64,000 nucleotides of DNA. Origin: an uncultured Christensenellaceae bacterium. Its GTDB lineage: Bacteria; Bacillota; Clostridia; Christensenellales; Borkfalkiaceae. This document shows, one piece after another, positions 11,425 through 55,352 of this stretch. Location: contig CAJUJO010000001.1 in the NCBI GenBank assembly GCA_910586675.1, positions 6,377 to 70,376 of the forward strand, given 5' to 3'. Below the pieces are notes generated by a model. The model saw nothing but the letters and a program-made list of their open reading frames with translations. It ran no database searches and was not told where the DNA came from. The translations under genes were made by a program, and so were the position numbers. How positions within the stretch are numbered: position 1 is the first letter of the stretch; the number at the start of each line of letters is the position of its first letter.

Positions 11425-12779
11425 GTTTCCTCCTCCGTGTAAAGCTTCGCCGCGCGGCGAAGCAGATAGGTTTTATTGTTTCGCGCGCCGTTTTCGGCGC
11501 AGTGAAAGAGCAGTTCCTTCAACGCTTGCCCCGTGCGTTCGGGTTTCACGCCCGCTTTTTGCAGCTCCGCGCCGTTTACGGCGAGCTCGCTTAAACGCAT
11601 CGGCACGCCTTCCCGCTTCATATCCGCGAGGATTGCCCGCCATTTGACGACGGCGGGCGCGGGGGAGAAATCGTCCTTGCAGGCGGTGTAATCCGCCTGT
11701 TTGAGGGTAAGCAACCTTTCAAGAAGGTCGTAATTTTCGATCATTTCGCGGCGGACTTTATTTTTTTTCATTTTGCCGTCCAAATCGCGCATGTGCAGCC
11801 GCACGAGCCGCGCCGTTTCGGAAATCAGTTTAGCGGGCGCTTTCAGGCGGGAAAGAATTTCTCTTGCCATACGTTCGCCCTCTTCGGCGTGCGCGTAAAA
11901 GTTTCCGTCGCGCGCCATGCAGAAGGGCTTGCCGACGTCGTGCAAAAGGGCGGCGAAGCGAATCTCTTCGGGCGCGTAAGCGCAGCAGCGCAGGGAGTGT
12001 TCGAGCACGTCGTGGTCGTGAAAGTCGGGGCGTTGGCGCATTCCGTCGCCCATTGCAAGCTCGGGTAGGATATGCGCGAGCACGCCCGTTTTGTTCAGGA
12101 CGGAGAGCCCGCGGTAGGGCGCTTCCTTCAAATCGTGCTTTTCGTCGGACGAGAGAATGAGTTTCAGCTCGGCAAAGACGCGCTCGGGCGCGATGTCATC
12201 TATGAGCGCGCAGTGTTTTTTCGCGCCGCATAAAGCTTCACCGTCGGGCGTGAAACCGAGCTGCGCCGCGAACCGCGCCAGCCGCATGAGACGGAGCCCG
12301 TCCTCGCCGAACACCTTGTCCGCGGGCGCGACGGTGCGCAGAATTTTCTTTTTTATATCCGCAATTCCGCCGAGCGGGTCGCGCAGCGCACCCTCCGCGA
12401 TATCGTAATAGACGGCGTTTGCCGTAAAATCCCGCCTTTTCGCGTCCGTTTCCATGTCGTCCGTAAATATGATTTCCGCGGGGGTATGAACGCCGCGCAC
12501 GTATTTGTCCGAACGGAATCGGGTAAATTCATAGCCGCGTCCTTCTTTGTCGGTCAATTTAACCGTACCCGTGTTCTTGTAAACCGAACGCGCGGAAAAA
12601 CCGCACCGCTTCGCTGCGGCGAGAATTTTTTCTTCGGGGAGCGGAGAGCAAATATCCCAGTCGGCGTTTTCGGGCAGGGGATAGCCGCACAAAAAGTCGC
12701 GCACGCTCCCGCCCACGAGGTAAAGGGGGCGGCACAGCTCCGCCAGCTTGATTAAATTATCGGGAAGAATCGCACGCAT
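11421..12779 (-). CDS. cca: CCA-adding tRNA nucleotidyltransferase / poly(A) polymerase family with HD domain
   Basis: LVGGSVRD and the RRDFT motif, plus a C-terminal HD domain (LLHDVGK). I prefer the ATG at 12779 (GAGG upstream) over the TTG at 12818. The stop overlaps the rmuC ATG (ATGA). Confidence 0.85.
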   Translation of the reverse strand: MRAILPDNLIKLAELCRPLYLVGGSVRDFLCGYPLPENADWDICSPLPEEKILAAAKRCGFSARSVYKNTGTVKLTDKEGRGYEFTRFRSDKYVRGVHTPAEIIFTDDMETDAKRRDFTANAVYYDIAEGALRDPLGGIADIKKKILRTVAPADKVFGEDGLRLMRLARFAAQLGFTPDGEALCGAKKHCALIDDIAPERVFAELKLILSSDEKHDLKEAPYRGLSVLNKTGVLAHILPELAMGDGMRQRPDFHDHDVLEHSLRCCAYAPEEIRFAALLHDVGKPFCMARDGNFYAHAEEGERMAREILSRLKAPAKLISETARLVRLHMRDLDGKMKKNKVRREMIENYDLLERLLTLKQADYTACKDDFSPAPAVVKWRAILADMKREGVPMRLSELAVNGAELQKAGVKPERTGQALKELLFHCAENGARNNKTYLLRRAAKLYTEEET

Positions 12780-45135: not shown

Positions 45136-46350
45136 TTATTCCTGCGTTTCCGCTTTTTCTTCCCGTTTCCGTTCGGCGACGTTGAATCTCCGCGCCTGCT
45201 TCACCAAGGAAGGGGAGCTGAACGCGAGCACGCCCGCCGCGATCACGACGGCGACGTCGACGAATACGAAGGAGTTATATCCCAGCGAATACACCCAAAC
45301 CTCCATGCCCGCTTCCGCGGCATAGGCGGAAAAGGCGAACACGCCGGAAAGCACGTGGCTTATGAAGCGGAACGCGCTCGCAACGACTGCGCCGAGCGCA
45401 AATTGAATCTGAGGCAGCTTTTCCAGCTTCTTCGCATTTGCGAACAAGCCCGCAAGCCCGATTCCCGCGAACGCGACGGGGTAGTCTAGCATAAACTGCG
45501 CGGGATGAATGATCCAGGGATCCTGAACGGCTTGCAGCACGCCGTAAATCAGTCCTGCGAACACGCCCTTTCTGGTGCCGAACATATACGAGTAAATCAT
45601 CAGCGGCAACAGGGAAGCGACGGTTACCGAACCGCCCTGCGGCATCTGTGCGATTCTTAAGTAGGAAAGGGCAAAGGAGAGGGCAATGCAAATGGCGGCG
45701 TAAGCGATAGACTTGGAATCGAAGTCCTTTTTGCCCTTGTCGAAGAGGAATCCGAGCGCGGCGATTGCGCCGAGCAGGAGCGCTGCCGAAATATAAAGCA
45801 CGATTTGGTTGACCGTTGCAACATCGGAGTTAAAATAACCGTCTCCGTCAACGTTCTGCGCGTAATGTACGCCGATACAGACGAGCAGGGCTATGAGCGC
45901 CGCGCCCACAAGGCTTGCGCATACGATCGCCGTAATCTTGAAGGGCTTTTTCCCGAAGTAAGAGGAAGCGTAAACGACTGCCGCGCCGAGGAGCAGCGTT
46001 CCCGCGAGCACGGCTGCGGGGGCTAGCAGGAGCGCTTCCACGCGCCCTTTTTCGGCGAGCTCGGCAAATTCCAACGACAGCATGGCAAGAATGACGGTTA
46101 CGGCGAAGCCGACGGCGAGCGCCGCCGCCGTTTTCATGTAGCCGCCGAGCGCTTCCTGTTTTTTGGACCGTACTACGAAGCCGACGGCGATTAAAACGAC
46201 GGCGAGCGCGATCGCGGCGTACAGGAATACGCTCGTCAGGCAGTTTTTGGCGTATTCCGTCCAAACTTCTTTGTAAAGGTAGCCGAGCGTATTGCCGCTT
46301 TCGTCCTTTACTTCGTCCGCATACGAGGCGAGCAGGGAATTGAGTAACAT
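45136..46350 (-). CDS. thiT: thiamine ECF-transporter S component ThiT fused to a ~205-aa five-TM N-terminal extension
   Basis: The C-terminal ~195 aa has MPQGGSVT, MLDYPVAFAGIGLAGLF and HVLSG..F....A.......WVYSLGYN, as in ThiT/YuaJ. It lies downstream of a TPP riboswitch. The N-terminal half has five extra hydrophobic helices. Confidence 0.85.
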   Translation of the reverse strand: MLLNSLLASYADEVKDESGNTLGYLYKEVWTEYAKNCLTSVFLYAAIALAVVLIAVGFVVRSKKQEALGGYMKTAAALAVGFAVTVILAMLSLEFAELAEKGRVEALLLAPAAVLAGTLLLGAAVVYASSYFGKKPFKITAIVCASLVGAALIALLVCIGVHYAQNVDGDGYFNSDVATVNQIVLYISAALLLGAIAALGFLFDKGKKDFDSKSIAYAAICIALSFALSYLRIAQMPQGGSVTVASLLPLMIYSYMFGTRKGVFAGLIYGVLQAVQDPWIIHPAQFMLDYPVAFAGIGLAGLFANAKKLEKLPQIQFALGAVVASAFRFISHVLSGVFAFSAYAAEAGMEVWVYSLGYNSFVFVDVAVVIAAGVLAFSSPSLVKQARRFNVAERKREEKAETQE

Positions 46351-47195: not shown

Positions 47196-47948
47196 ATGGG
47201 CAAATTCCGAAAAAAGATCGCGCCGACGGCGGAAGGCTTGCAGCGCGCGCGGGAGCAGGAACGGCTCCGCGCCGAAAGCAAATCGCTTTGCGCCGAGGAA
47301 GACGTTTCGAAGCATAAGGACAGGCGGATCGCGGCGATCGTATTCTTTGCCGCGGCGGCGTTGCTGTTTGCGGTTTCCGTTGCGTTTACGGGGATCACGA
47401 TCGCCCGTATGCGAAGTTACGAGCTCGATTTTGTGCGCACGACGGGCACGGTTACCGATGATCGAATAATAGGCAGCCCGGGAAAGAAATTTATCGTTCT
47501 CGTCTTTACCTATTCTTACGGCGGGGCGGAATATTCCTTTGCGGATAACGTCCCGTTTCAAGGATTGCTCTCCGAAGCGATGAACACGGAAACGGAAATT
47601 TACGTTAATCCGAAAAAACCCGCCGAAGCGGTTCGCGTGAGTTCGTCGGGTGCGTTTTCCATTATTCCGACGGTGATTTTTGCTATTTCTGCGTTTTCGT
47701 TTATGATTGCCGTATGTTTGTCGGGCGGCGGATACCGGCGGCGCGCGCTCCTCGGCTATCTGCCCGTGTTTGCCGCGGGGATTGTATTTATGCTTCTGTT
47801 TTGGCTGGGACTTCCAAACGACGGCTTTGGCGCGGTATTTTCGCGCATGGGCGGCGCGACGGGGTATCTGTCGCTTTCCGTGCTTGCTGCGGTTGCCGCC
47901 GCGATTGACGGGGCAATAACGCTCCGATTCCGTAAAAAGAGAATATGA
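47196..47948 (+). CDS. DUF3592-like membrane protein (paralog 1)
   Basis: 250 aa. Charged N-terminus, a TM, the beta-rich block RMRSYELDFVRTTGTVTD...EIYVNPKKPAEAVRV, then three TM helices. Confidence 0.65.
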   Translation: MGKFRKKIAPTAEGLQRAREQERLRAESKSLCAEEDVSKHKDRRIAAIVFFAAAALLFAVSVAFTGITIARMRSYELDFVRTTGTVTDDRIIGSPGKKFIVLVFTYSYGGAEYSFADNVPFQGLLSEAMNTETEIYVNPKKPAEAVRVSSSGAFSIIPTVIFAISAFSFMIAVCLSGGGYRRRALLGYLPVFAAGIVFMLLFWLGLPNDGFGAVFSRMGGATGYLSLSVLAAVAAAIDGAITLRFRKKRI

Positions 47949-48733
47949 AAAAGAAAGAAAGCATTCAAAACGAAAAGCAGCGCCTTCACCAAGAGGAGGC
48001 GGCGCGATTGCGCGAGGAAAAGCGGTTAAGGCGCAGAAAGGAGAAAAAGCAGGCGGCTGTCGTCATGCTCCTCGTAGGTTTGGGTGCGTTCGTCGTTTCC
48101 CTCGTTTTTTTCGGGCTGCACGTAGCCCGTATGCGCGACTTTGAGCTCAATTATGTCCGTATGTACGGCACGGTAACCGATTTCAAAATCCACCACGCTT
48201 CGGGTACGCATTCGATGGGTACGACGCATTACAGCTACGTTTTTACCTATCGTTACGAGGGGAAGACGTACAAGGCGACCGATTCGGAAGCGTATAGCTG
48301 GCGAAACGAGGAGATGCTCGGCGAAAAGGTGGAAATTTACGTCAACCCTGCACAACCCGAACGTGCGGCTCGGGTAAAGACGGCGGACGGCTATTCCATC
48401 ATGGCGGCGGTGCCGTTTGTTATTTCGCTGCTTGCATTCTCCGTCGGCGGGCTGACCCTCGTCGGGCTCAAAGGGGGCGGATATGCAAAGCGTATTCTGT
48501 TCGTATGGCTGCCCGAATTGCTGTTTTGCGCGGCATATATACTGTTGTTCGCGCTGGGGCTCCCGCACGACGGGGTTGCCGCAATCTATGCGCGCACAAG
48601 GGGCGCAATCTGGGTTTCCGTCGGCGGCGGCGCTGTGATAGTTGCCGCGGCGATTGACGGTCTTATTACTTACAAATCAAGACCGAAGGATATCGACGGG
48701 CGCGTTGCTTCATGGCGTCGCTTAAAGAAATAA
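47945..48733 (+). CDS. DUF3592-like membrane protein (paralog 2)
   Basis: 262 aa with the same architecture (RMRDFELNYVRMYGTVTD...EIYVNPAQPERAARV...AAAIDGLIT). ATGA overlap with paralog 1. Confidence 0.65.
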   Translation: MKKKESIQNEKQRLHQEEAARLREEKRLRRRKEKKQAAVVMLLVGLGAFVVSLVFFGLHVARMRDFELNYVRMYGTVTDFKIHHASGTHSMGTTHYSYVFTYRYEGKTYKATDSEAYSWRNEEMLGEKVEIYVNPAQPERAARVKTADGYSIMAAVPFVISLLAFSVGGLTLVGLKGGGYAKRILFVWLPELLFCAAYILLFALGLPHDGVAAIYARTRGAIWVSVGGGAVIVAAAIDGLITYKSRPKDIDGRVASWRRLKK

Positions 48734-48759
48734 AGAAATAAACCTCCCCGCACGTTGAT

Positions 48760-48796
48760 ATGCACCCCAAAGGTTTGTCTAACTTTTGGGGTGCAT
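48760..48796. terminator. bidirectional terminator hairpin
   Basis: ATGCACCCCAAA-13 nt loop-TTTGGGGTGCAT between the convergent DUF3592 and mnmG genes. Confidence 0.65.
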
Positions 48797-48798
48797 GT

Positions 48799-50658
48799 TT
48801 ACTTTTTCAAGCTCAAATAAATCATCAAGACGGCGATGTCGGCGGGGTTTACGCCCGAGATGCGTTCCGCCTGCCCCAAATTCAAGGGGCGGACGCGCTG
48901 TAATTTCTCCCGCGCTTCCAGCCGCAGTCCGTCGATTTTTAAATAATCTATGTCGTCGGGCAAGGGCTTTTCTTCCATTTTGCGCGCCTTTGCGATTTGC
49001 TCTTCGCTCGCTTTCAAATACCCCGCATAGCGGATCTCCGTTTCCGCGCTGTCCTTTACGGCGGCGGGAACGTCTTCTAAGATGCCGAACGCTTCCGCAA
49101 CTTCCGGAAGGGGGATTCCCCTGCGGAGCAGATCGGCATAGGAAATTCCTCCCGAAAGGGGGGGATATCCGTATTTTTGTACGAGCGCGTCGGCAATTTT
49201 TCTGTCGGCGCGGGTATCGAGGAAGGCTATCGTATCGCGCAGCAGCTGTTTTCGCGCGAGAAACTTCCGATAGCGTTCTTTTGTGGCAAGCCCGCATTCA
49301 TATCCGATTTCCGTTAATCTCATATCGGCGTTATCCTGCCGCAGGGAAATGCGGAATTCCGCGCGCGAGGTCATCATGCGGTAGGGTTCGTCCGTGCCCT
49401 TCGTTACCAAATCGTCGATGAGCACACCGATATACGCCTGATCCCGCCGCAGGACAAGGGGCGGCATTCCGCGCAATTTCAAGGAAGCGTTCAAGCCCGC
49501 AATCAAGCCCTGCGCCGCCGCTTCCTCGTAGCCGCTCGTGCCGTTGATTTGTCCCGCCGTGTAAAGCCCTTCGATATTTTTATATTCGAGGGTGGGAAAT
49601 AAATCGAGCGTATCGATGCAGTCGTATTCGATGGCGTACGCATAGCGGACGATTTCGCAGTTTTCAAGCCCCGCTACGGTGCGGTACATCTGTTTTTGCA
49701 GGTCGTGCGGGAGGGAGGTGGAAAGCCCCTGCACATACACCTCCGTCGTATCCGCGCCCTCGGGTTCGAGGAAGAGCTGGTGCCGTTCCTTGTCGCGAAA
49801 GCGTACGACCTTCGTTTCGATAGAGGGGCAGTATCTGGGCCCCGTCGAAGAAATTTGTCCGTTATACAGCGGCGCGCGGTCGAGGTTGTTTAATATGACT
49901 TCGTGCGTCTTTTCGTTGGTATATGCAAGGTAACAGGGCGTCTGCGTTTCGGGCGATTCTTCGTTGAGAAAGGAAAAGGGCGGAACGTCTTCGCCCGCTT
50001 GAATTTGCAGGCGGGAATAATCCACCGTCCGTCCGTCCAGCCGCGCGGGGGTGCCCGTTTTGAAGCGGCGCACGCGGAAGCCGAGTTTTATCAGATTATC
50101 GGTCAAAAGAGTGGCGCTTGCAAAACCGTTGGGGCCGCTGGCCTTTACGACTTCGCCCGTGATCGTCTGCGAATTAAGGTAAACGCCCGTCGCGATCACG
50201 GCGGCGCGGCAGGAGATGATTCCCCCGTAAGCCGTTTTCACGCCCGTAATCCTTCCGTTCTCGGTGAGGATTTCCGCCGCTTCGCCCTGCAAGATGCGCA
50301 GATTTTCCGTATGCTCGAGCGTGCGTTTCATTTCGCGGTGGTAGGCGTTTTTATCCGTCTGTGCGCGGAGCGACTGCACCGCCGCGCCCTTGCCCGCGTT
50401 GAGCATGCGAATCTGAAGGGCGGTTTTATCGGCGTTTACGCCCATTTCTCCGCCCAAAGCGTCGATTTCGCGCACTAAATGCCCCTTCGCCGTTCCGCCG
50501 ACGGAGGGGTTGCAGGGCATAAAGCCGATGGAATCGAGGTTGAGGGTGAGCATGACCGTCTTTAAGCCCGTCCTAGCGAGTGCGAGCGCGGCTTCGCAGC
50601 CCGCGTGCCCCGCGCCGACGACGACGGCGTCGCATGCTCCTTCGGAAAAAGTATTCAT
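48799..50658 (-). CDS. mnmG: tRNA uridine-5-carboxymethylaminomethyl synthesis enzyme MnmG (GidA)
   Basis: 619 aa with the VVVGAGHAGCEAALA FAD motif and full-length GidA-like sequence. Confidence 0.97.
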   Translation of the reverse strand: MNTFSEGACDAVVVGAGHAGCEAALALARTGLKTVMLTLNLDSIGFMPCNPSVGGTAKGHLVREIDALGGEMGVNADKTALQIRMLNAGKGAAVQSLRAQTDKNAYHREMKRTLEHTENLRILQGEAAEILTENGRITGVKTAYGGIISCRAAVIATGVYLNSQTITGEVVKASGPNGFASATLLTDNLIKLGFRVRRFKTGTPARLDGRTVDYSRLQIQAGEDVPPFSFLNEESPETQTPCYLAYTNEKTHEVILNNLDRAPLYNGQISSTGPRYCPSIETKVVRFRDKERHQLFLEPEGADTTEVYVQGLSTSLPHDLQKQMYRTVAGLENCEIVRYAYAIEYDCIDTLDLFPTLEYKNIEGLYTAGQINGTSGYEEAAAQGLIAGLNASLKLRGMPPLVLRRDQAYIGVLIDDLVTKGTDEPYRMMTSRAEFRISLRQDNADMRLTEIGYECGLATKERYRKFLARKQLLRDTIAFLDTRADRKIADALVQKYGYPPLSGGISYADLLRRGIPLPEVAEAFGILEDVPAAVKDSAETEIRYAGYLKASEEQIAKARKMEEKPLPDDIDYLKIDGLRLEAREKLQRVRPLNLGQAERISGVNPADIAVLMIYLSLKK

Positions 50659-50672
50659 ACTGGGTTAAAATA

Positions 50673-52019
50673 TCATTGTTTCAGAATGGCGCTCTTGATG
50701 TCGTTCACGTCTTTCAAAACGGCATCGTTCACGCGCATGAGCTCGGCAATTTTGTCGCGCGCGTAGATGACGGTGGAGTGGTCTCTCCCGCCCATTTCCT
50801 TGCCGACGGAGATAAGGGGCAGGGCGAGCATTTCGCACATGAGGTAGGTGCAAATCTGGCGCGCCCGCACCAGCTCCTGCCGCTTGTTTTTGCCGATGAG
50901 GTCGGCTTTCGTGATGTTGTAATAGGAGCACGTGGCGCGGATAATGGCGTCGGGCGTGGCTTCCTCCTGCTCGTCGGCGTTGCCTATGGACTCTTGCAGT
51001 GCCGTCGCGGCGAGCTTTAAGGAGATAGGTTCTTCGTGCAGCTTGCTTGCGAAGATGACGGTGTTCAGCCTGCCTTCGAGCGTGCGCACGTTGTTGTCGG
51101 TATTCTTCACGAGGAAGGCGAGCACCTCGTCGGGCACAATATATTTCTTTTCCAGCGCCTTGCGCTTTAAGATGGCGATCTTCGTTTCCAAATCGGGCGG
51201 CTGAATGTCGGCGATCAAGCCCCCTTCGAATCGGGTGCGCAGGCGCTCTTCCAGCGTTGTGAGCTCCTTTGCAGGGCAGTCGGAGGAAATTACGATCTGT
51301 TTATGCTGGGCGAACAGCTCGTTAAAGGTATGGAAAAAGGCTTCCTGCACGCCGTACTTTCCCGCCCAAAATTGAATGTCGTCGATGATCAGCACGTCCA
51401 CGTTGCGGTAGCGGTTGCGGAAGCGCATTTCGTTGTCCCGTCCGCCGCCCTTCTTTGCGAAACTGTCGATATATTCGTTCAAGAATTTTTCGCTCGTCGT
51501 GTAGATGACTTTGAGCGAGGGCTTCTTTTCCGCGATTTCGTTGGCGATCGCCTGCATGAGGTGGGTTTTACCCAGCCCCGTGCCGCCGTAAATGTAAAGG
51601 GGATTGAAGTTTTCCCCCGGCGCTTCGGCGACCGATTTCGCCGCCGCAAACACGAATTTGTTGGAGGAGCCGACGACGTACGAATCGAAGGTATAGCGTT
51701 TATCGAGGACGACGGTCGTCTCTTCCACGGCGTCGGGCATTTCTCGAAGGGTATATTCCTCGCTCCCTTCCACGACGACGACGAAATCGACAAGCCCCAC
51801 GTCGGCGGAAACAACCGCCTCGCGCAGCTTTTCGGCAAGGCTTTTGGAGATGAGGCTTGCGGTGAGCTCCGTTTCCGCCTGCAACACGATTTTACGGTTC
51901 ACCACGTCCACGGGCACGAGGTTTTCGATGAACGTACTGTAAGAAATGGTATTCACGAGCGTCTTTGCCCGCTCGCGGATTTTATCCCATAAAAAATCAA
52001 ACTGTGCTTTTTCCGTCAT
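50673..52019 (-). CDS. dnaA: chromosomal replication initiator protein DnaA
   Basis: 448 aa with Walker A GGTGLGKTHL, the AAA+ core and the domain IV signature (..GGRDHSTVIYA..). Confidence 0.97.
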   Translation of the reverse strand: MTEKAQFDFLWDKIRERAKTLVNTISYSTFIENLVPVDVVNRKIVLQAETELTASLISKSLAEKLREAVVSADVGLVDFVVVVEGSEEYTLREMPDAVEETTVVLDKRYTFDSYVVGSSNKFVFAAAKSVAEAPGENFNPLYIYGGTGLGKTHLMQAIANEIAEKKPSLKVIYTTSEKFLNEYIDSFAKKGGGRDNEMRFRNRYRNVDVLIIDDIQFWAGKYGVQEAFFHTFNELFAQHKQIVISSDCPAKELTTLEERLRTRFEGGLIADIQPPDLETKIAILKRKALEKKYIVPDEVLAFLVKNTDNNVRTLEGRLNTVIFASKLHEEPISLKLAATALQESIGNADEQEEATPDAIIRATCSYYNITKADLIGKNKRQELVRARQICTYLMCEMLALPLISVGKEMGGRDHSTVIYARDKIAELMRVNDAVLKDVNDIKSAILKQ

Positions 52020-52117
52020 TTTACCCTCTGAAACGCTTCCGTTTTGCCGTTATTTTTGCTATAATTATAGTACAAAACGCCTTAAAAAGAAAGTGTTTTT
52101 GCGGAAAATTCGGTCAA

Positions 52118-53203
52118 ATGTTCATAAAAAAATTAACGCTCGTCAATTTCAGAAATTACGAAGGGGAAACGTTCGCCTTTTCCGAAGGCGTCAACGTGCT
52201 TTCGGGCAGGAACGCGCAGGGCAAGACCAACTGCGCGGAAGCCGTGTTTTACCTGTGCACGGGCGCATCCCTCCGTATTCGCCACGACAGACAGCTCATC
52301 CGCCACGGGGAGAGCTGCGCTTCTCTTCGCGCCGAAGCGGAGAGCCGGTACGGAAGCGTTGTTCTGGAAGCGGACGTTTTTGAGAATAAGCGGGAGCTCC
52401 GCGTGAACGGGAGCAAGGTTTCCCGCACGGCGGACTTCATCGGAAACATGAACAGCGTGTTTTTCTCCCCCGGCGAGCTACGGCTCATTCAGGACGGGCC
52501 GGACGAACGCAGGCGCTTTCTGAACCTTTCCATTTCGCAGACCTCGCGCGCTTATTGCACCGCGCTGCAACGGTATAACAAGATTCTCGAACAGCGCAAC
52601 AACCTCTTGAAGGAGCGGGACGCTTCGCTCATTTTAGAAACCCTGCCCGTGTGGGACGAGCAGCTCGCCCGCTACGCCGCCGTGATCGTGCGGCACAGAA
52701 GGGAGTTTTTGAGCAAACTTTCGCCGCTTGCGGCGGAAGCGCACGCCTACCTTACCGACGGCGCGGAAACGCTTACGCTCGGCAGCGATCGGGAATACGA
52801 AGGGGGCGAGGAGGAGATCGCCGCGCGGCTCGTCCGCGAGCTGGGCGGTGCGTACGAGCGGGATATTCGCCTCGGGTTTACGACGGTCGGGCCGCACCGC
52901 GACGACATCAAAATTTCCATCGACGGAACGGACGCGCGCGGCTACGCTTCGCAGGGGCAGACGCGCACGGCGGCGCTTTCGTTAAAGCTCGCCGAAGTGG
53001 AGATATTCAAGGAAATTTCGGGCGAAGCGCCCGTCCTCGTTTTGGACGACGTGATGAGCGAGCTCGACCTGCCCCGCCGTAAAAAGCTGCTCTCGCGGGT
53101 GAACGGCATACAGTGCATTCTCACCTGCACGCATTCCGAGCGCGTGCTGTACGGCACGGAAACCAATAAGATCCGCATTCAGGGGGGAAGAATCGTTCCG
53201 TGA
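52118..53203 (+). CDS. recF: DNA replication and repair protein RecF
   Basis: 361 aa from MFIKKLTLVNFRNYE, with Walker A GRNAQGKTN, the signature motif SQGQTRTAALSLKLAE and Walker B VLVLDDV. Confidence 0.92.
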   Translation: MFIKKLTLVNFRNYEGETFAFSEGVNVLSGRNAQGKTNCAEAVFYLCTGASLRIRHDRQLIRHGESCASLRAEAESRYGSVVLEADVFENKRELRVNGSKVSRTADFIGNMNSVFFSPGELRLIQDGPDERRRFLNLSISQTSRAYCTALQRYNKILEQRNNLLKERDASLILETLPVWDEQLARYAAVIVRHRREFLSKLSPLAAEAHAYLTDGAETLTLGSDREYEGGEEEIAARLVRELGGAYERDIRLGFTTVGPHRDDIKISIDGTDARGYASQGQTRTAALSLKLAEVEIFKEISGEAPVLVLDDVMSELDLPRRKKLLSRVNGIQCILTCTHSERVLYGTETNKIRIQGGRIVP

Positions 53204-54042
53204 AAGCCGATTTGCATCTGCATTCGGTCTATTCGGACGGAAAATATTCGCCCGAAGAGATCGCCCGCCGCGCAAAGCAAGCGGGACTCAAACTGTTTTC
53301 GCTTACCGATCACGACAATATGGGCGGCAGCGAAGAAGCGGAAGCTGCGGCGCAAAAATACGGGCTTCATTTCGTGCGCGGGTGGGAGGTTTCCTCGTAC
53401 GATGACTGCAAGGTGCACGTTTTGGGGTACGGCTGCCGCGGCGGGGCGGCATATCGGGACTTTCTCGAACGGCGTAAAACGGGCGGATTGCTCCGCGCGC
53501 GGGATATGCTGGAAAAGGCCAATTCTTATTTTTGCACGTCGCTCACGATGAACGACGTCGAGCGCGAGCACTTAAAAAAGGACGCGCCGCTCCATACTAT
53601 GCACGTCGTGCGGGCGTTCGCAAGACGGTTGAGCGTGAAGGCGGACGCGCTCTATTTAAGCGCCTTCGATAGGGGCAAGCCCTGCTATTCCGATTTATAC
53701 CGCCCTTTGCCCGAACACGCGATCGAGGCGATCCGCGCCGACGGCGGGATCTCTTCTTTGGCGCACCCGGGGCGCATTGCCTTGGATTTTGCCGCGAAGG
53801 AAGCGCTCATGCTGCGGCTCGTTTCGGCAGGGCTCGACGGTATAGAATGCGTATATACCACGCATACTGCTGAGGAAACGGCTTATTTCGAGGCGTTCGC
53901 GCGCAGGCGCGGCTTGTTCACGACGGGCGGATCCGACTTTCACGAAGAGGGCGGGCGCGCCGTGTTGGGAAATCCCGCGTTCCGTGCGGACGGGCGATTG
54001 CTCGCAGCGCTCGGGATACCGTTTGGCGGAGGCGGTGAATGA
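53200..54042 (+). CDS. PHP-domain phosphoesterase (TrpH/YciV-like)
   Basis: 280 aa with a GTG start overlapping the recF stop (GTGA). Carries DLHLHSVYSDG and LTDHD motifs. Confidence 0.8.
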   Translation: MKADLHLHSVYSDGKYSPEEIARRAKQAGLKLFSLTDHDNMGGSEEAEAAAQKYGLHFVRGWEVSSYDDCKVHVLGYGCRGGAAYRDFLERRKTGGLLRARDMLEKANSYFCTSLTMNDVEREHLKKDAPLHTMHVVRAFARRLSVKADALYLSAFDRGKPCYSDLYRPLPEHAIEAIRADGGISSLAHPGRIALDFAAKEALMLRLVSAGLDGIECVYTTHTAEETAYFEAFARRRGLFTTGGSDFHEEGGRAVLGNPAFRADGRLLAALGIPFGGGGE

Positions 54043-55352
54043 AGAGAATTTTTACGGTTGCACTGACGCTCCTCTTTGCGGGGAGCGTTTTTCCTTTTTC
54101 GGGTTGCGCTTGGGGCGGGCGCGTAAAGGCTGACGTTACGGTAGAGGGCGTCGTCGTGGGCGGTTTGACGTACGCGGAGGCCGAGCGCGCCGTGCGGGAA
54201 AAAATCGCGGGCGGGCTTGCTCCGCTCACCGTCTGCGCGCCGTCGGGAAACGTAACCTTTGCTTATCCCGAAATTTCCTTTACGGACGACGTGTCCGCGT
54301 TGGTGCGGCGCGCCAAGCGCGGGGACAGACTTGCCGCGCGCATAAGGCGCAATTGGGCGGAAGCGGAGCGCCGTTTGGAAGAGATATGCGCGCAAAATGC
54401 GCGGCAGGCGGTAAATGCCGAACTTACTTTTTCCGCAAAGGGGTTTGAATATTCGGCGGGGGAAAACGGCGTTCGCTGCGATTACAACGCGCTTCTTTCC
54501 GATACGGCAAGGGCGCTGCGGGAAGGCGGGGAAACCGTAATGCTCCGCTGCGGCGAATATGCGCCCGAGATTACGGAGGAATCGCTCCGCGCGCGCACGC
54601 AGGCGCTTTCGGAATTTACCACCTATTACGACGGGGACAATCGCCCGCGCAGCCATAATATCGCGTTGGCGGCGGAACGCGTTTCCGGCACGGTATTGGA
54701 GCCGAACGCGGAATTTTCCTTCAACGCGGCGGTGGGCAAGCGCACTGCGGAAAACGGGTTCGAAGAAGCTACCGTCATTCAGGACGGGGAATTTGCAAAG
54801 GGGATCGGCGGGGGCGTGTGCCAGACGAGCACGACGCTTTTCAATGCGGCGCTCCGCGCGGGAATGAAGATCACCGAAAGCCGTAACCACTCCCTCGCCA
54901 TAAGCTATGTGCCTTATTCGCTCGACGCGATGGTGTCCGAATACAGTGATTTGAAATTCGTAAATCCCTACGCGTTCCCCGTTTATATTCTCGCGCGCGC
55001 GGAGGGCGACGGCGTGAAGTTCGAGTTTTTCGGCATGCCCGACGGCTTGCGCTACGAAACGGAGAGCAGGATTCTGCTCCGCGTGAAGCCGCCCGAAGCG
55101 AAAATCGTGGAAGGGGAGAAAAACGCCGTTCTCCGCGCCGAAAAGGAGGGGATCGCCAGCGAGAGTTATCTGCTCGTTTACAATGGGGACGGAAAGCTTT
55201 TATCCCGCACGCTGATCCGGCGGGACAGCTATGCCGCGGTGCAGGGCATCTATCAGGTCGCCCCTTCGGAGGAAGAGCCGCCTGCGGGGGAAGAAGACGG
55301 CGATTACGGCATATCTCCGCACGGCGAGGGGGAATTTGAGCTTTTCGGTTGA
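54039..55352 (+). CDS. VanW-family protein, probable lipoprotein
   Basis: 437 aa with a signal peptide and lipobox-like FSGC, plus the VanW core GGGVCQTSTTLFNAALRAGMKITESRNHS. ATGA overlap with the PHP gene. Confidence 0.85.
   Translation: MKRIFTVALTLLFAGSVFPFSGCAWGGRVKADVTVEGVVVGGLTYAEAERAVREKIAGGLAPLTVCAPSGNVTFAYPEISFTDDVSALVRRAKRGDRLAARIRRNWAEAERRLEEICAQNARQAVNAELTFSAKGFEYSAGENGVRCDYNALLSDTARALREGGETVMLRCGEYAPEITEESLRARTQALSEFTTYYDGDNRPRSHNIALAAERVSGTVLEPNAEFSFNAAVGKRTAENGFEEATVIQDGEFAKGIGGGVCQTSTTLFNAALRAGMKITESRNHSLAISYVPYSLDAMVSEYSDLKFVNPYAFPVYILARAEGDGVKFEFFGMPDGLRYETESRILLRVKPPEAKIVEGEKNAVLRAEKEGIASESYLLVYNGDGKLLSRTLIRRDSYAAVQGIYQVAPSEEEPPAGEEDGDYGISPHGEGEFELFG

Follow-up and report, generated by a model that had tools for sequence, protein, structure and literature searches.

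The initiator gene dnaA of an uncultured Christensenellaceae bacterium lies in the window (the whole stretch of 64,000 nucleotides analysed here, C1:6377-70376), at C1:57.0-58.4 kb on the minus strand, with no recognisable origin of replication (oriC) beside it. The contig, C1, belongs to a 41-contig draft assembly of 1.54 Mb that is 93% complete and resembles a metagenome-assembled genome (MAG). We propose, with a probability of roughly 0.87, that the window holds the single dnaA of this genome and lacks the origin, that the junction of dnaA with the origin region that follows it in Firmicutes (oriC2, or incC) is broken throughout a clade, and that oriC was kept by dnaN, which sits on another contig, C13. 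The clade concerned is Candidatus Gallimonas and its neighbours, uncultured gut Clostridia with genomes of ~1.5-2 Mb.

The features on which the argument at the dnaA end turns are the gene and the two short spacers that flank it:

50673-52019, minus strand: dnaA (TIGR00362 equivalog, 462.4 bits against a cut-off of 343.9, residues 11-444).
50659-50672, minus strand: dnaA-mnmG spacer of 14 bp, with neither a Shine-Dalgarno sequence nor a DnaA box.
52020-52117: divergent promoter spacer between dnaA and recF, 98 bp, 65% A+T, with the palindrome TATAATTATA and without DnaA boxes.

Judged by its sequence, DnaA is an ordinary, normal initiator, and this dnaA is the one functional copy of the genome. 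The protein is full length (448 residues), and family models (TIGR00362 and PF00308+PF08299+PF11638) find domain I, the AAA+ domain III and domain IV, with the Pfam matches DnaA_N at residues 10-69, Bac_DnaA at 105-270 and Bac_DnaA_C at 356-424. Among solved structures its nearest relative is the DnaA of Bacillus subtilis (8btg, 328 bits), to which the motifs GGTGLGKTHL (Walker A), DVLIIDDIQF (Walker B) and GGRDHSTVIYA (domain IV) align. The PF00308 search gave one match in the whole 1.54-Mb assembly, thus no second dnaA or dnaA-like paralogue in its 93%-complete sequence, and exactly one per genome in 41 of 41 relatives.

The surroundings of this gene do not resemble an origin. We scanned for DnaA boxes with up to two mismatches to TTATCCACA and an intact CCAC core, and found none in either the 98-bp or the 14-bp spacer; between positions 46000 and 57000 of the window only two isolated weak matches occur, and perfect TTATCCACA boxes are present elsewhere in the genome. 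GC skew is positive over the entire window, the cumulative skew climbing steadily through 48-54 kb, and no switch of sign occurs anywhere on the 196 kb of C1. The order of genes departs from the Firmicute origin cluster as well, with mnmG after dnaA and a divergent recF before it; the canonical DnaA-box flanks and the switch of GC skew and gene-strand bias are missing at dnaA, and the skew switch is found at C13:12388 instead. Taken together, the box scan, the skew profiles and the promoter and terminator scans returned nothing near dnaA beyond ordinary promoters.

The dnaN, rpmH and rnpA genes of the canonical cluster are found on C13, outside the window. There, dnaN is followed by rpmH, rnpA, yidD, yidC and jag, all reading in one direction, and diverges across a 496-bp gap from rsmG and a ypsA-like gene. 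This gap is the candidate origin:

C13:12378-12873: candidate oriC, the 496-bp rsmG-dnaN gap, with a DnaA-box cluster and the GC-skew minimum.

All other contigs show a strong GC skew of one sign (|0.05-0.1|), whereas C13 turns from negative to positive at ~12 kb, and its cumulative minimum, at 12388, is 11 bp from the start codon of dnaN. The strongest DnaA-box cluster of the genome (six boxes in 240 bp, C13:12451-12690) lies 63 bp from that minimum; at the background of 0.47 boxes per kb, ~0.001 such clusters are expected by chance. Read toward dnaN, the gap begins with a sigma-70-like promoter (TTGAAT-17-TATAAT) and continues with six or more boxes of the TTGTCCACA/TTTTCCACA type, a tandem box pair TTGTCCACA-ATTCCACA, a GC spacer (CGC), DnaA-trio-like repeats (TTATTATTACTATTA), a 47-bp stretch of 85% A+T and finally GGAGG and the ATG of dnaN. 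Box pair, GC spacer, trio-like repeats and AT-rich stretch thus stand in the order of a basal unwinding system. We infer that oriC is C13:12378-12873 and that replication starts there, outside the window.

Relatives in the genus have the same element. When the 220 bp preceding dnaN are aligned across 13 congeners, the TCCAC cores of the box pair and a TATAAT are invariant and a run of TTAYTA repeats is conserved; 12 congeners carry 5-10 boxes directly upstream of dnaN, and in four of these 12 the skew minimum lies within ~120 bp of the dnaN start, the others being noisier. As for other box clusters in the genome, those at the end of C22, at C13:25.3 kb, on C27 and on C3 were rejected as origins on the grounds of fewer boxes and contigs without a skew switch.

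Several expectations of the first-pass annotation, which had been made from the window alone, are borne out by these results. It had seen no boxes near dnaA and no dnaN, rpmH or rnpA in the window, and had suggested that dnaA is separated from oriC. The formal scan agrees on the boxes, dnaN, rpmH and rnpA are on C13 with dnaN and rpmH adjacent, and the box search and GC skew that it had proposed, run over the contigs, place both the cluster and the minimum at dnaN and neither near dnaA, so that the finding it had named as a refutation does not occur.

Could dnaA nevertheless retain a working origin, or half of one, in the recF-dnaA spacer, be it oriC1-like or cryptic with divergent boxes, so that the origin is split or dual? 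Firmicute origins are classically two-part, the spacer is 65% A+T, and among outgroups described below the equivalent spacer contains the skew minimum in one (G035) and two boxes in another (G038). We nonetheless consider such an origin very unlikely: the spacer is free of boxes at up to two mismatches both here and in 21 of the 22 relatives measured, the skew passes without inflection across the 196-kb contig, 98 bp would have to accommodate two promoters as well, and a complete module of boxes, trios and AT-rich DNA is located at dnaN.

The separation of dnaA from a dnaN-linked origin is shared by a whole clade. A scan with the DnaA protein over GTDB species representatives returned 29 loci at 58-86% identity, labelled uncultured Clostridia, uncultured Christensenellaceae or Candidatus Scatosoma. 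Wherever the contig reaches, all 29 have VanW, PHP and recF genes reading one way and dnaA and mnmG reading the other, save that the PHP gene is missing from four (L019, L021, L023 and L024); the synteny comparison suggested in the first-pass annotation thus shows an arrangement that is clade-wide. In 22 of 22 relatives the strand that encodes dnaA has negative GC skew. A corresponding scan with DnaN gave 80 loci, many of them named Candidatus Gallimonas. The order with ypsA and rsmG on one side of the boxes and dnaN, rpmH, rnpA, yidC and jag on the other is complete in 66 of the 80, the rsmG-ypsA pair is inverted in four, and in the remainder the common order is truncated. Over the 80 loci, the 520 bp upstream of dnaN contain 6.6 boxes on average as against 0.27 per 520 bp elsewhere, and not one of these loci has dnaA within 4 kb of dnaN. 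Among the 24 genomes of the genus, none has dnaA and dnaN on one contig: they lie on separate contigs in all 23 congeners where both were found (dnaN was not found in G019). The clade whose origin lacks dnaA has thus kept the gene, at the recF and dnaA-mnmG locus.

These recurrences also bear on the suspicion that the layout is an artefact of assembly or binning, such as a chimeric join at the edges of dnaA or a dnaA that belongs to another organism. A MAG-like draft of 41 contigs and 93% completeness invites that suspicion, but we hold it so improbable as to be excluded, because both half-layouts recur: the divergent recF and dnaA-mnmG junctions are found in 29 species-level genomes that were assembled independently, in various studies and from various hosts, and the complementary origin without dnaA is found in 80 loci. 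Composition and skew are moreover uniform over the locus, and each of the 41 relatives has its one dnaA.

We next consider how far dnaA lies from the origin and in which direction it is read. Since skew on the plus strand of C1 is positive over 196 kb, replication should run from left to right, with C1:1 proximal to the origin. This places dnaA and mnmG on the lagging strand, head-on to replication, and leaves recF, PHP and VanW co-oriented with it. By crude ORF calls, co-orientation holds genome-wide for 71% of open reading frames (ORFs) and 75% of coding bases, so dnaA and mnmG belong to a minority class of orientation without being extreme outliers.

The contig ends and the direction of the skew set a hard lower bound on the distance: C13 reaches 27 kb beyond oriC toward rsmG and 12 kb toward jag, and dnaA must therefore be at least ~84 kb away. 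Synteny narrows this further. In congener G011, one 125-kb contig joins oriC and the C13 homologues to C6 (reversed), a short piece of C19 and C1:0.5-10 kb. In G003, the oriC contig runs from C13 through reversed C6 into C19 and onward, and a second contig (G003:C3) runs from C19 through C31 and C24 to C1:6-71 kb, colinear through dnaA and with positive skew. The resulting order is oriC, C13 (27 kb), C6 (55 kb), all or part of C19 (up to 32 kb) and C1 (57.7 kb to dnaA). From this draft-genome synteny, dnaA is estimated to lie ~140-175 kb from oriC, ~9-11% of the chromosome, on the rsmG-side replichore.

One may ask whether the displacement is adaptive and not a neutral relic. On that account, which we regard as quite unlikely, a position ~10% of the chromosome away from oriC, read head-on and on a common transcript with mnmG, would lower and delay the rise in dnaA dosage after initiation and would tie initiator supply to translational status, in place of the lost box autoregulation. 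Clade-wide, down to 58% DnaA identity, dnaA keeps its head-on orientation, its promoter without boxes and its linkage to mnmG, in a genome where ~71-75% of genes are co-oriented with replication and dnaA and mnmG are in the minority. Neutral inheritance would, however, conserve gene order within a clade just as well, the spacing of dnaA and mnmG varies between 6 and 678 bp and tolerates repeat insertions, other families unlink dnaA and dnaN differently and in some cases with dnaA co-oriented (G033 and G036), and the distance between oriC and dnaA appears to vary among congeners.

The gap between dnaA and mnmG deserves a closer look for its bearing on transcription. On the minus strand, the stop codon of dnaA leads to the start codon of mnmG as TGA tattttaacccagt ATG, and the promoter and terminator scan found no promoter-like or terminator-like site inside these 14 bp, which is why dnaA and mnmG are probably co-transcribed in this species. 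The 14-bp spacing, which the first-pass annotation had singled out, is not conserved: over 22 loci measured in relatives the gap is anywhere from 6 to 678 bp long, and its variable, sometimes repeat-filled nature argues against obligatory coupling.

In several relatives the gap is enlarged to 300-680 bp by GC-rich palindromic repeat units (L025:7340-7920, L012:5370-5710 and L030:7480-7920; units such as CCCACCNCTTGAGGGGTGGG and GCAAGGCNNNGCCTTGC). These repeats look like repetitive extragenic palindromic elements or miniature inverted-repeat transposable elements; the 14-bp gap of the window has none of them.

The history of the split can be traced in outgroups of the same order. Outgroup G035 and locus L038 have recF divergent from dnaA and, downstream of dnaA and in the same direction, three boxes and then dnaN; in G035 the skew minimum is the one inside the recF-dnaA spacer mentioned above, and mnmG-rsmG lies ~5 kb downstream, head-on. 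In the closest outgroup, G038 (46% DnaA identity), divergent recF and dnaA are on one contig, with two DnaA boxes in their spacer, and dnaN and rsmG are on another, flanking boxes and the skew minimum. The divergent recF-dnaA junction therefore predates the split, and dnaA was not simply inverted in place, as the first-pass annotation had supposed. Nor did dnaN relocate, as it had also supposed; oriC stayed with dnaN, the boxes and skew minimum immediately preceding dnaN here and in all relatives examined. It follows that the box cluster upstream of dnaA was lost before dnaA and oriC parted. The origin was probably already one-part by then, confined to the dnaA-dnaN gap, and a break between dnaA and oriC2 would therefore have been tolerable.

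Such unlinking has taken place more widely. Among 16 other families sampled in the order, dnaA and dnaN are unlinked in six (G027, G031, G033, G034, G036 and G038; loci L101-L114). They are 30, 9 and 15 kb apart on single contigs in G033, G034 and G036, respectively, and on different contigs in G027 and G031. The six layouts are all different; the box cluster is beside dnaN in six of six and the skew minimum is there too in four (G038, G033, G036 and G027). In this order, oriC consistently accompanies dnaN, not dnaA, and the unlinking has come about in several different ways.

As a path to the present layout, we examined a single inversion of the segment from oriC2-dnaN to mnmG in a G035-like ancestor. 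It would account for the adjacency of dnaA and mnmG in one direction, for their head-on orientation and for oriC staying with dnaN; we rejected it, since it does not place rsmG at oriC and yields a separation of only ~8 kb. At least three breakpoints are needed to pass from the canonical to the present layout, and we commit to no path.

With these results in hand, the proposed loss of the dnaA-oriC2 junction can be set out as a sequence of steps. A rearrangement would have cut dnaA off from the origin region that followed it, leaving oriC on dnaN and the pair of recF and dnaA at a present distance of ~0.14-0.17 Mb from oriC-dnaN. The 98-bp spacer would provide dnaA with a promoter free of boxes, the transcript probably including mnmG as well; the DnaA protein would diffuse to the origin at dnaN and, in analogy to B. 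subtilis, would open it through the module of box pair and trios. Initiation would thus use a one-part origin with dnaA acting in trans, and DnaA-box autoregulation of dnaA of the B. subtilis type would be absent. Because the boxes follow the dnaN promoter, transcription of dnaN would read through the origin while DnaA is bound to it.

Several points weigh against this proposal or parts of it. The supposed loss of autoregulation is deduced solely from the absence of recognisable boxes, and a start of replication in the dnaN-rsmG gap is read from sequence features. The trio call is likewise a sequence pattern, which in its strict form was matched in 51 of 79 loci. The estimated distance derives from two draft MAGs that differ from each other past the C6/C19 segment, and in several congeners the oriC contig runs for 134-226 kb on the rsmG side without reaching dnaA, so the distance must vary or be larger in those genomes. 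Finally, unwinding in vitro in Clostridioides difficile needed both oriC1 and oriC2 (PMC7561715), and a one-part origin in a member of the Clostridia is therefore something that we infer.

The remaining genes around dnaA form a compact neighbourhood, whose identities and coordinates as called in the first-pass annotation (mnmG, dnaA, recF, PHP and VanW) agree with the ORF list and the family searches; its reading of mnmG 14 bp after dnaA without a Shine-Dalgarno sequence, and of a divergent recF at 98 bp, is likewise seen in the sequence:

48757-48799, plus strand: 19-pair hairpin at the 3' end of mnmG, between mnmG and a convergent DUF3592 gene.
48799-50658, minus strand: mnmG (gidA; TIGR00136, 803 bits).
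52118-53203, plus strand: recF (TIGR00611, 345 bits), divergent from dnaA.
53200-54042, plus strand: PHP-family phosphoesterase (Pfam PHP), overlapping recF by 4 bp.
54039-55352, plus strand: VanW-domain protein with a PG_binding_4 domain (Pfam VanW, 157 bits), overlapping the PHP gene by 4 bp.

The PHP protein scores below the cut-offs of the models for 3',5'-nucleoside bisphosphate phosphatase and RNase RNM. The hairpin is likely a two-way terminator for mnmG and DUF3592. On its far side, two tandem paralogues encoding DUF3592 membrane proteins of 250 and 262 residues (47196-48733, plus strand, overlapping each other by 4 bp) converge on mnmG and have the hairpin in common with it. Farther on, a 404-residue ORF (45136-46350, minus strand) has a ThiT/YuaJ thiamine-transporter domain on residues 216-373 only; its N-terminal extension of ~210 residues has only a weak DUF4199-like match and may reflect a fusion or an over-long ORF call.

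Other observations concern C13 and box clusters away from oriC. About 10 kb further out on the jag side of C13 lie ORFs that resemble parB and parA (named by eye from their N-terminal sequences). In two congeners (L093 in G009 and L098 in G004) the rsmG-ypsA pair beside oriC is inverted; the block flanking the origin is therefore itself mobile within the genus. The second-best box cluster of the genome is at C22:26304-26389 (L008:9738-9823), where four boxes (TTATCCACA, TTTTCCACA, TTTTCCACA and TTTCCACA) stand in the same orientation within 90 bp, between a divergent spoIIGA-sigE-sigG-like cluster (named by eye) and the strong promoter of a tRNA-like gene at the contig end; it is possibly of the regulatory type known in B. 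subtilis. At C13:25344-25374 (L007:5344-5374), ~13 kb from oriC, two perfect inverted boxes 13 bp apart (TTATCCACA and TGTGGATAA) are found at the 5' end of a small membrane-protein gene, whose neighbour encodes a 741-residue multi-pass membrane protein resembling an H+-pyrophosphatase (named by eye).

The separation of dnaA from oriC has practical consequences. Pipelines that search for origins, like annotators of MAGs, often take dnaA as the anchor for oriC, particularly in Firmicutes; applied to this abundant gut lineage, the rule would put the origin more than 100 kb from its true place, and dnaN together with skew is the correct guide. The clade offers a natural case of a Firmicute origin without dnaA or oriC1 in cis, which bears on whether two-part origins are obligatory, and the order as a whole offers a set of independent separations of dnaA from dnaN, with oriC beside dnaN every time. 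One could go further and suppose a large clade of free-living gut Clostridia with a self-sufficient origin made of oriC2 only, in which dnaA acts permanently in trans, head-on, without box autoregulation and co-transcribed with mnmG, and in which control of the initiator has been rewired through dosage, fork passage at ~10% of the chromosome and translational status, which take over from the classical dnaA autoregulation loop of Firmicutes. We regard this bolder idea as unlikely; if true, the order would be a natural experiment in which dnaN, not dnaA, is the only obligatory cis partner of the origin. In the literature library searched, we found no publication that links oriC or dnaA with Christensenellales.

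How does this layout compare with known systems? In B. subtilis (incC) and C. difficile (oriC2), the region that unwinds is the dnaA-dnaN gap, which combines an unwinding element with boxes and trios (PMC6669920, PMC7561715), and in Firmicutes including clostridia the rnpA-rpmH-dnaA-dnaN context and the two-part origin have been described as conserved (PMC7561715). The order of elements toward dnaN on C13 is the same, and the trios read TTATTATTACTATTA here and CTACTACTATTACTACTA in C. difficile (PMC7561715). By contrast, a divergent rsmG and not dnaA stands upstream of the origin here, rpmH-rnpA is downstream of dnaN and not upstream of dnaA, no oriC1 region accompanies dnaA, leaving a one-part origin, and the dnaA promoter is free of boxes.

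In E. coli, oriC lies between gidA (mnmG) and mioC, ~42 kb from dnaA, and dnaA retains both its dnaA-dnaN-recF operon and DnaA-box autoregulation. As in E. coli (whose oriC-gidA adjacency is mentioned in PMC6323995), the initiator gene is in trans here, the origin is tens of kb away and gid genes are near the origin, the one here being rsmG (gidB). Unlike E. coli, mnmG accompanies dnaA and not oriC, dnaN stays at oriC and the dnaA promoter lacks boxes. In cyanobacteria, an oriC adjoining dnaN with dnaA elsewhere is the rule, and the box motif is TTTTCCACA (DoriC 5.0 and 10.0; PMC3531139, PMC6323995). The likeness extends to all three features, oriC by dnaN, dnaA unlinked and boxes that are mostly TTTTCCACA or TTGTCCACA rather than TTATCCACA, but the present case is in the Bacillota, class Clostridia, with an origin clearly derived from the Firmicute oriC2, and no homology is implied. 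The layout is thus unusual for Firmicutes and an exception within the phylum, but it is known in other bacteria and is not a new kind.

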